DNA of 431 nucleotides from Escherichia coli. Lineage in GTDB: Bacteria; Pseudomonadota; Gammaproteobacteria; Enterobacterales; Enterobacteriaceae. The DNA is taken from the NCBI RefSeq assembly GCF_003334385.1, contig NZ_QOWN01000183.1. The stretch is one strand, 5' to 3'. Positions 1-431 of this stretch are shown piece after piece. Position numbers and translations under genes: made by a program. Numbering within the stretch: position 1 is the stretch's first letter; each line of letters starts with the position of its first letter. The notes beneath the pieces are model-generated. The model had not been told where the DNA came from. It saw only the letters and a list, made by a program, of their open reading frames with translations, and ran no database searches.

Positions 1-77
1 GCAACCAGCATTAGTGAAAATGAAATACCGACAATCACACACAGGACCTTTGCCGGCGTTATGAGTTTGTCTGACAT
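1..77 (-). CDS. 5' end of a protein-coding gene (start ATG at 77-75, continues beyond window position 1); hydrophobic N-terminus suggests a membrane or secreted protein; identity unknown
   Basis: Minus-strand ATG at 77-75 is the first start after an in-frame TAA (89-87). It is preceded by AAGGGG (88-83) with a 5-nt spacer. The frame stays open to position 1 and reads MSDKLITPAKVLCVIVGISFSLMLV..., with a hydrophobic stretch from about residue 10. The supplied track omits it, apparently because it is partial. Confidence 0.6.
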   Translation of the reverse strand, partial: MSDKLITPAKVLCVIVGISFSLMLV

Positions 78-79
78 AG

Positions 80-175
80 CTACCCCTTAATTGCCACAAT
101 TAACTGGGATACTACCCATAAAAAAGGGATGCTCCAGACCAGCAAAAATTTCCAGTTTGGTAATTGACTAATCAT
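80..175 (-). CDS. Candidate small ORF, 31 aa (MISQLPNWKFLLVWSIPFLWVVSQLIVAIKG), predicted single-pass small membrane protein; hypothetical
   Basis: This is the internal ATG (175-173) of the 70-aa track ORF, in the same frame, with TAG stop at 82-80. AGGGAG (190-185) lies 9 nt upstream. The peptide has a roughly 20-residue hydrophobic core (FLLVWSIPFLWVVSQLIVAI) flanked by K residues. Caveat: the minus strand is T-rich here, which favours hydrophobic codons by chance. Confidence 0.35.
   Translation of the reverse strand: MISQLPNWKFLLVWSIPFLWVVSQLIVAIKG
83..88 (-). promoter_or_regulatory. Shine-Dalgarno / ribosome-binding site (AAGGGG) for the gene starting at 77
   Basis: Minus-strand AAGGGG lies 5 nt upstream of the ATG (AAGGGGtagctATG), a near-ideal spacing for a purine-rich Shine-Dalgarno. 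Confidence 0.6.
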
Positions 176-184
176 GAGTCGCAA

Positions 185-190
185 CTCCCT
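185..190 (-). promoter_or_regulatory. Putative Shine-Dalgarno (AGGGAG) for the candidate small ORF
   Basis: Minus-strand reads AGGGAGttgcgactcATG. The GGAG core is present and the 9-nt spacer is at the long end of the functional range. Confidence 0.35.
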
Positions 191-240
191 AATCAGTTTG
201 CTAAAATCAATCAAGGCAGCCTCCCATAGCTTACTGCCAT

Positions 241-280
241 AAAAACAAAACCCCGCTTGCTGCCAACAAACGGGGTTTTT
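241..280. terminator. Rho-independent (intrinsic) terminator, potentially bidirectional
   Basis: Stem 251-259 (CCCCGCTTG) pairs with 267-275 (CAAACGGGG): 9 bp with one C/A mismatch and five G-C pairs, loop 260-266. It is followed on the plus strand by TTTTT (276-280) and preceded by AAAAACAAAA (241-250), which is UUUUGUUUUU on the minus strand. The minus-strand TAA stop at 287-285 lies 9 nt before the hairpin. Confidence 0.75.
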
Positions 281-284
281 ACTT

Positions 285-431
285 TTATTCACTTACATTT
301 TGCCAGTTCGCAGGATTTCGTGTTATCCGTCCGCCTTGGCCAACGTCATTTATTAGCAAAATATTCTGCTTATCTGTCGATTCCCCAGCACGCCAGCGCG
401 CTCTCCTGGTCTCGCCGGGATACCTGACCGT
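285..431 (-). CDS. 3' end of an upstream protein-coding gene (enters from beyond 431, TAA stop at 287-285); product unknown; frame assignment uncertain
   Basis: Minus-strand frame is open from 431 to the TAA at 287-285 (48 codons: ...TVRYPGETRRARWRAGESTDKQNILLINDVGQGGRITRNPANWQNVSE*), and the stop is followed immediately by the terminator. Caveat: this frame holds several codons rare in enterobacteria (AGG x2, AGA, CGA, CGG, CTA, ATA x2). Another minus frame, stopping at 372-370, and a stop-free plus frame are also open here. Confidence 0.4.
   Translation of the reverse strand, partial: TVRYPGETRRARWRAGESTDKQNILLINDVGQGGRITRNPANWQNVSE

Follow-up and report, generated by a model that had tools for sequence, protein, structure and literature searches.

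Reading frame at the 3′ end of a prophage endolysin gene in an Escherichia coli lysis cassette

Introduction

Which reading frame, if any, encodes a protein at the end of the 431-base stretch of Escherichia coli DNA analyzed here (hereafter, the window)? Across positions 285-431, a minus-strand frame crowded with rare codons, a second minus-strand frame that stops at 372-370, and a plus-strand frame with more typical codons share the same bases. A first-pass annotation, made from the letters of the sequence, offered three alternatives: the rare-codon frame is a horizontally acquired or weakly expressed gene, the gene ends in the other minus-strand frame, or the region is non-coding. Our analysis leaves little doubt that positions 431-370 of the minus strand are the 3′ end of a prophage endolysin gene, R, that an untranslated trailer comes next, and that the rare-codon frame and the plus-strand frame are shadow ORFs.

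Results

Prophage setting of the window

E. coli chromosomes carry the window at 100% identity; among 5426 complete E. coli genomes, 2027 contain parts of it, at 6783 places in all. The window lies in the lysis cassette of an E. coli lambdoid prophage of the Stx-phage type, with its genes on the minus strand. In the RefSeq annotation, the order in the direction of transcription is two tRNA genes, a sialate-esterase-like gene, a class II holin, a 177-aa lysozyme, four small hypothetical ORFs, an Rz-type lysis protein, and terminase. The lysozyme is endolysin R, which sits between the class II holin upstream and the Rz-type "lysis protein" downstream; the same order of holin, endolysin, and Rz is also seen in H-19B and 933W. 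Because the lysozyme coding sequence spans 370 to 903, only its last 20 codons and the stop are inside the window. The frames in question are as follows, in window coordinates:

370-903, minus strand: lysozyme coding sequence (RefSeq WP_054518644.1, "lysozyme," on identical chromosomes)
370-431, minus strand: 3′ end of endolysin R, with the last 19 sense codons in the window (…GQVSRRDQESALACWGIDR) and TAA at 372-370; based on RefSeq, Pfam, alignment, and codon-position variation
285-431, minus strand: rare-codon frame, a shadow ORF (…TVRYPGETRRARWRAGESTDKQNILLINDVGQGGRITRNPANWQNVSE, then stop); no periodicity, truncated in relatives, startless here
205-431, plus strand: startless antisense shadow frame (open from 205 to 441, ending at 442-444); no start codon and no PHROG match

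The prophage also carries a tRNA-Arg (anticodon TCG) and a CAT-anticodon tRNA (locus L001, 11933-12094). The latter is called Met by ARAGORN and tRNA-Ile by RefSeq, and the two tRNAs correspond to argN and ileZ as annotated in the prophages of O157 Sakai; tRNAs of the argN/ileZ type in Stx phages read rare codons. Between the tRNAs and the esterase gene (L001, 10853-11119), we found the small RNA STnc100 (179 bits) and an AsxR-like anti-sRNA, the latter at 63 bits, which is exactly the gathering score. The strain from which this prophage comes is a commensal of a healthy person.

Endolysin R and its reading frame

Pfam family PF00959 (Phage_lysozyme) matched R at 1.8e-24 (residues 33-167 on model positions 2-125 of 125), and phrog_7, "endolysin," matched it at 2.7e-62. 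R aligned to the R protein of phage 21 (PDB 3HDE/3HDF) and to RrrD (4ZPU) over residues 31-174 of 177, through the C-terminal …CWG; thus, the conserved C-terminus that the first-pass annotation had expected to settle the frame is present in the alignment with all three structures. The catalytic triad Glu35/Asp44/Thr50 of R aligned with the same residues in phage 21 R (3HDE), and the triad spacing (Glu, 8 residues, Asp, 5 residues, Thr) is present. The residues encoded within the window (…SRRDQESALACWGIDR) form the conserved C-terminal part of the lysozyme fold.

To compare substitution patterns, we collected 88 related loci from IMG/VR and GenBank phages, which gave 67 distinct sequences of the R gene plus 130 nt. 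Among these, pi was 0.026, 0.028, and 0.154 at R codon positions 1, 2, and 3, respectively, and the variable sites in the last 20 codons numbered 2/20, 2/20, and 13/20 at the same three positions. RefSeq annotation, lysozyme structure alignment, and codon periodicity all identify the true frame as the minus-strand one ending in …ACWGIDR, with its TAA at 372-370. This corresponds to the second of the three alternatives; the 3′ UTR that came with it is also there, with about 90 nt before the terminator stem rather than the estimated 95. As an annotated endolysin whose stop is where RefSeq puts it, R was already known, and its gene end is ordinary.

At the other end of the protein, residues 9-24 (LSTAILALITAGASAP) are weakly hydrophobic and rich in Gly and Ala, and this composition suggests a putative signal-anchor-release domain. 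Enzymes with such a domain are exported, remain tethered to the inner membrane, and are freed to cut the cell wall once the upstream holin depolarises the membrane. By analogy with phage-21-type lysis systems, the N-terminus of R would mediate export and tethering; collapse of the membrane potential by the holin would then release R, and the cell wall would be cut. Translation of R ends at TAA 372-370, leaving 369-284 untranslated as part of the R module.

A trailer with three conserved blocks

The 86 nt at 369-284 are a non-coding trailer belonging to the R module, so the suggestion that the region is non-coding holds for 285-369 and fails for 370-431, where R is coding. The trailer and the terminator that follows it comprise these features:

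351-369, minus strand: trailer block A (GCAGAATATTTTGCTAATA), conserved, pi 0.035
329-350, minus strand: variable trailer stretch, pi 0.265
307-328, minus strand: trailer block B (GGATAACACGAAATCCTGCGAA), conserved, pi 0.038, with a possible 4-bp GGAU/AUCC hairpin
295-306, minus strand: variable trailer stretch, pi 0.195
284-294, minus strand: trailer block C (AAGTGAATAAA), pi 0.000 in 67 distinct sequences
237-279, minus strand: intrinsic terminator, a 15-bp stem at 279-247 followed by GTTTTTATGG; based on terminator scan and MFE fold

As neutral yardsticks, we used pi at R third codon positions (0.154) and at 4-fold degenerate sites (0.191). Diversity in the intervening stretches reaches or exceeds the neutral level, whereas the three blocks are as conserved as R codon positions 1 and 2. 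Because the data had already been inspected when the block limits were drawn, the resampling P values for the blocks are optimistic; the contrast is large nonetheless. An exact 19-mer from block B (GGATAACACGAAATCCTGC) occurs in at least 120 IMG/VR contigs. Among 120 such contigs, the R C-terminal peptide was found upstream of the 19-mer in register in 111 and offset by one base in 8, and 1 contig was too short to read; the C-terminal YGQVSRRDQESALACWGIDR followed by the stop was exact in 95 of the 120 loci and one residue off in 16 more. The trailer accompanied this R gene in every one of these cases.

Conservation of the three blocks is not explained by a plain trailer; it is the only unexplained feature of the region, and a minor one. 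Purifying selection on the blocks is a tentative reading, under which they may be an undescribed Stx-prophage element, either a small RNA, a processing or stability signal, or a junction for cassette swapping. We think it unlikely overall that this reading is correct, although it deserves to be weighed in its two forms.

In the first form, trailer and terminator together would be a functional RNA of the late transcript, either a small RNA cut out of the R 3′ UTR or a signal for processing or stability that would set how strongly R is expressed compared with the genes downstream. This is compatible with the region being the end of the R gene. In its favor are the block diversities far below those at third positions and 4-fold sites, the neutral stretches in between, and the constant association of the trailer with this R gene. 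An A-rich stretch immediately precedes the terminator, an intrinsic terminator with a U tail is present at the 3′ end, and a hairpin with a T-rich tail is found ~90-125 nt past the R stop, whichever cassette comes next; on the other hand, the terminator itself is swapped between lineages, and the block boundaries were picked after viewing the data. RNA structure also argues against a functional RNA. RNAalifold, run on 34 trailer variants, predicted two small hairpins only (372-357 and 328-313), with 10 pairs, zero compensatory changes, and a covariation term of 0.03, and the first hairpin is broken in some variants. Block A together with the last A of the stop codon could form a 6-bp hairpin. 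A scan for covarying column pairs in the trailer gave nothing coherent. A long-range stem seen in the single-sequence fold (346-342 with 299-295) was rejected, as it was not kept in the variants and showed no coherent covariation.

Searches for a known RNA likewise weigh against this form. An Rfam scan of the window at a permissive threshold returned three sub-threshold matches, none with E < 0.5 or near its gathering score; they rest mainly on the terminator hairpin, and one of them, ohsC, scored 21.6 bits against a gathering score of 50. Over the stretch of the locus from R to Rz, no Rfam family reached its gathering score. Based on the Hfq-CRAC table for O157 Sakai (PMC4104026 Table S2), none of 64 peaks is at the R trailers of Sp4, Sp6, and Sp10, but this negative is weak because the cultures were uninduced and the late genes were probably silent. 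The peak nearest to the R trailers is EcOnc11, downstream of Rz. A sigma-70 promoter scan of the minus strand of the trailer found no promoter, and manual inspection gave only poor -10 elements. In a literature search for the trailer sequence, the sole match was to primers designed to knock out and tag R in Sp5 (PMC8621323). On balance, we give a functional RNA at this position a minority chance, well short of even.

Other candidate identities for the trailer were considered and set aside. For the trailer to be called a decayed Rz start, the resemblance to the Qin rrrQ-rzpQ junction is too short, ending ~10 nt after the stop. AgvB, AsxR, and EcOnc03 differ in sequence from the trailer. PasA, which is described as adjacent to the holin/lysozyme operon, was ruled out by its position, as PasA and PasC are between the esterase and the holin (bioRxiv 10.64898/2026.05.13.724894).

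EcOnc10, EcOnc11, and EcOnc12 (Tree et al. 2014) are very strong Hfq peaks that map just past Rz, on the other strand from the late genes. The site in Sp10 corresponds to L212 8820-8868 (O157 Sakai 1946819-1946867), and spacing puts peaks at the same place in Sp9 and Sp12. This position is outside the window, in the next intergenic gap of the cassette.

Terminator and alternative downstream cassettes

The terminator stem has 15 pairs (6 G-C) and a 3-nt loop, and it appears in both the MFE and the centroid fold (MFE -44.5 kcal/mol, z = -5.1). Although outside 285-431, the terminator marks where the trailer ends. Because the tail on the plus strand is also T-rich (TTTTTACTTTTATT; 247-290), the terminator can act in both directions. 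From lambdoid biology, unmodified transcription in either direction would be expected to stop at 279-247, whereas Q-modified late transcription would read through into the small-ORF cassette and Rz.

Homology with other phages breaks off at window positions 284 (9 loci), 275 (14), 241/238 (10), 221 (14), and 134 (21), and what comes after the trailer is one of at least three different cassettes. In the type found here and in H-19B, a strong CCCCG-type terminator is followed by small ORFs; in 933W, VT2-Sakai, and ArgO145, a GGCACC hairpin is followed by an antirepressor gene. The alternative hairpin of the 933W-type phages is followed by TTTGTCATTT. Block C is placed at the junction where the alternative downstream cassettes start.

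The second form of the selection reading takes its cue from this arrangement: the conserved blocks, especially 294-284, would be DNA junctions for homologous recombination that swaps R-Rz cassettes (small ORFs, antirepressor, or nothing) among lambdoid prophages. The discrete points at which homology ends and the three or more cassettes behind one trailer are consistent with such junctions, as is the Qin gene rrrQ, which has no trailer and is followed by an rzpQ that overlaps its stop codon. However, recombination alone would not hold three short blocks invariant amid neutral stretches, and no recombinase site or repeat was identified. We rate this form, like the functional RNA, as possible but doubtful.

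The rare-codon frame

Based on six-frame translation, the rare-codon frame has its first codon at 431 and ends with TAA at 287-285. AGG, AGG, and AGA are its codons 3, 9, and 10, and it also contains CGG, CGA, CTA, and ATA (twice), in line with the cluster of three such arginine codons within 10 codons originally reported. As a reference for codon usage, we used 38 intact core genes of the same strain (11,701 codons) and defined as rare the 11 codon types below 6 per 1000 in this set. By this definition, 12/48 codons (25%) of the frame are rare, which is the level of out-of-frame readings of host genes: rare codons account for 4.2% of the 38 host genes in frame vs 19-20% in shifted frames. AGA and AGG occur in host genes at 1.9 per 1000 codons in frame vs 32-33 per 1000 out of frame, and a run of these codons is a signature of out-of-frame reading.

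Were this frame nevertheless a real gene, it would overlap the end of R out of phase, much as Rz1 lies inside Rz, and foreign origin or weak expression would account for its rare codons. The frame stays free of stops for 108 codons (window 611-288), and its translation matches phrog_34797 (1.8e-28) and phrog_30041 (3.6e-23), both of unknown function; because of these matches, some phage annotations call it a gene. It is also kept through the same stop in 132/196 relatives, most of which have an in-frame GTG at codon 7, but this persistence is expected by descent because the sequences are ~90% identical. In the remaining 64/196, in-frame stops or 1-nt indels truncate the frame. Where other loci have the GTG start of a 42-codon version, the window copy reads GAG, and it is one of 9 loci without ATG, GTG, or TTG in the last 20 codons.

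The distribution of variation points the same way. Inside R, variation hits the second codon position of this frame because that position coincides with the third position of R. Downstream of R (369-288), its three codon positions have similar shares of variable sites (12/27, 13/27, and 13/28), with no periodicity, and the middle of the peptide differs radically among variants (NDVGQGG, NAVCSHG, NKAWPRG, and NEVCLHG). We consider an overlapping gene very improbable, and the first of the three alternatives is abandoned for the same reasons, namely lack of periodicity, truncation in relatives, and the missing start. Horizontal acquisition, which had been proposed for the rare-codon frame, applies instead to R as a prophage gene; the rare-codon frame is no gene to be acquired. 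A functional +1 frameshift from R into this frame at the rare AGA-TAA end was likewise rejected, as the frame shows no coding constraint downstream. phrog_34797 and phrog_30041 are probably gene-caller artefacts built from a shadow ORF that happens to stay open for 108 codons.

Open frames, codon usage, and the plus-strand frame

Across 385-431, five of six frames are open, more than the three first counted, and only plus frame 2 is stopped (TGA at 425-427). GC content in this segment is 0.70, at which a 15-codon frame is open with probability 0.75; because 4.5 of 6 open frames are thus expected, the frame ambiguity is unremarkable.

The plus-strand frame was correctly described as having typical codons (CGC twice, CTG twice, CCG, and ACC) and no in-frame ATG, GTG, or TTG, here over the whole of 205-441. 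Codon usage favors it: over 19-20 codons, this antisense frame reached a codon-adaptation score of 0.605, ahead of the true frame (0.524) and the rare-codon frame (0.385), and it has no rare codons over 373-429, whereas the true R frame has 4/19 in the window (CGG, CGA, TGC, and AGA). That the plus frame of 205-441 is coding, as its host-typical codons might suggest, can nonetheless be set aside almost entirely, given that it contains no start codon, its path crosses the terminator hairpin, its translation gave no match in a PHROG search, and the substitution phase belongs to the minus-strand R frame. An antisense frame that shares third codon positions with a real gene commonly looks gene-like in codon usage.

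Because the antisense frame scores best, codon usage cannot pick the frame here, and the codon-adaptation check proposed in the first-pass annotation would have misled. Over the whole R gene, 22/176 codons are rare, and AGA and AGG make up 6/16 of the arginine codons, compared with 3.5% in host genes; this richness in rare codons fits a phage gene. Four rare codon types together supply 10/16 of the arginines of R.

Small ORFs downstream of the terminator

Directly past the terminator, a 44-codon ORF (window 80-214, minus strand; also L003 675-806) has a TTG start and a GGGAGG Shine-Dalgarno sequence. Its product is a small hydrophobic protein, LIDFSKLIRELRLMISQLPNWKFLLVWSIPFLWVVSQLIVAIKG, which matches phrog_6632 (1.4e-13); this product, of which 5 distinct sequences were available, may be a genuine small membrane protein encoded within the lysis cassette. 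A diverged, unannotated homologue in H-19B (…FDFSKLIREIRVMAEKLSTWKFILIW…) stops 1 nt short of Rz. Some RefSeq genomes instead annotate a 70-aa, GTG-started version (WP_001043230.1; window 80-292, minus strand), and others with identical DNA have no annotation there. This version is probably over-extended because its reading runs through the terminator hairpin.

The window also contains the start of a 43-aa hydrophobic ORF at 1-77, minus strand (L001 5946-6077; MSDKLITPAKVLCVIVGISFSLMLV…), annotated as WP_001280935.1 and matching phrog_4906 (4.5e-21). Variable sites in its first 25 codons number 1, 2, and 5 at the first, second, and third positions, respectively, which hints weakly at coding. 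Two further tiny ORFs (51 and 28 aa) are between this ORF and Rz. On the plus strand, a promoter-like site at 71-100 (CTGACA, 18 nt, TG-CACAAT) points toward the terminator; as pure speculation, a ~180-nt RNA on the plus strand would be antisense to the beginning of the 44-codon ORF, an arrangement like that of type I toxin-antitoxin systems.

Discussion

The biological weight of the gene end is small, as R is an annotated endolysin that over 2000 of the 5426 complete E. coli genomes carry. The locus is more useful as a caution for scanning by sequence alone: in ~20 GC-rich codons, the gene cannot be told from open frames and codon adaptation. In a stretch of this length, the true frame holds as many rare codons as the false one, and the antisense frame scored best of all. 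Should a function be shown for the trailer blocks, the lysis cassette of Shiga-toxin phages would gain a further control point.

Comparison with known systems

Short terminator-ended RNAs near late genes (AgvB, AsxR, STnc100, and PasA-D) are known from the same kind of prophage. An AsxR-like RNA and STnc100 are in the same locus as the window, ~4.5 kb upstream and before the esterase gene, and none of these RNAs maps to the trailer.

Phage 21 R (3HDE/3HDF) and DLP12 RrrD (4ZPU) are signal-anchor-release lysozymes of the same fold family as R (PF00959). They share with it the alignable residues 31-174, including Glu35, Asp44, Thr50, and …CWG, as well as the position in a cassette of holin, endolysin, and Rz. 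The relationship is distant (phmmer 63 bits, E ~1e-16), and …CWG is directly preceded by SRRDQESALACWG in the R of the window but by TRREIEREICLWG in phage 21 R. Rz presumably comes directly after R in phage 21, whereas in the window locus a trailer, a terminator, and small ORFs intervene between the two.

The K-12 Qin gene rrrQ is 84% identical to R over the coding sequence; however, the trailer is absent, and rzpQ overlaps the rrrQ stop codon. The R genes of Stx phages 933W, VT2-Sakai, and H-19B align to window 275/284-431 with ~90% identity, the trailer at 369-284 included, and in the 933W-type phages the trailer is followed by a different hairpin and an antirepressor gene.
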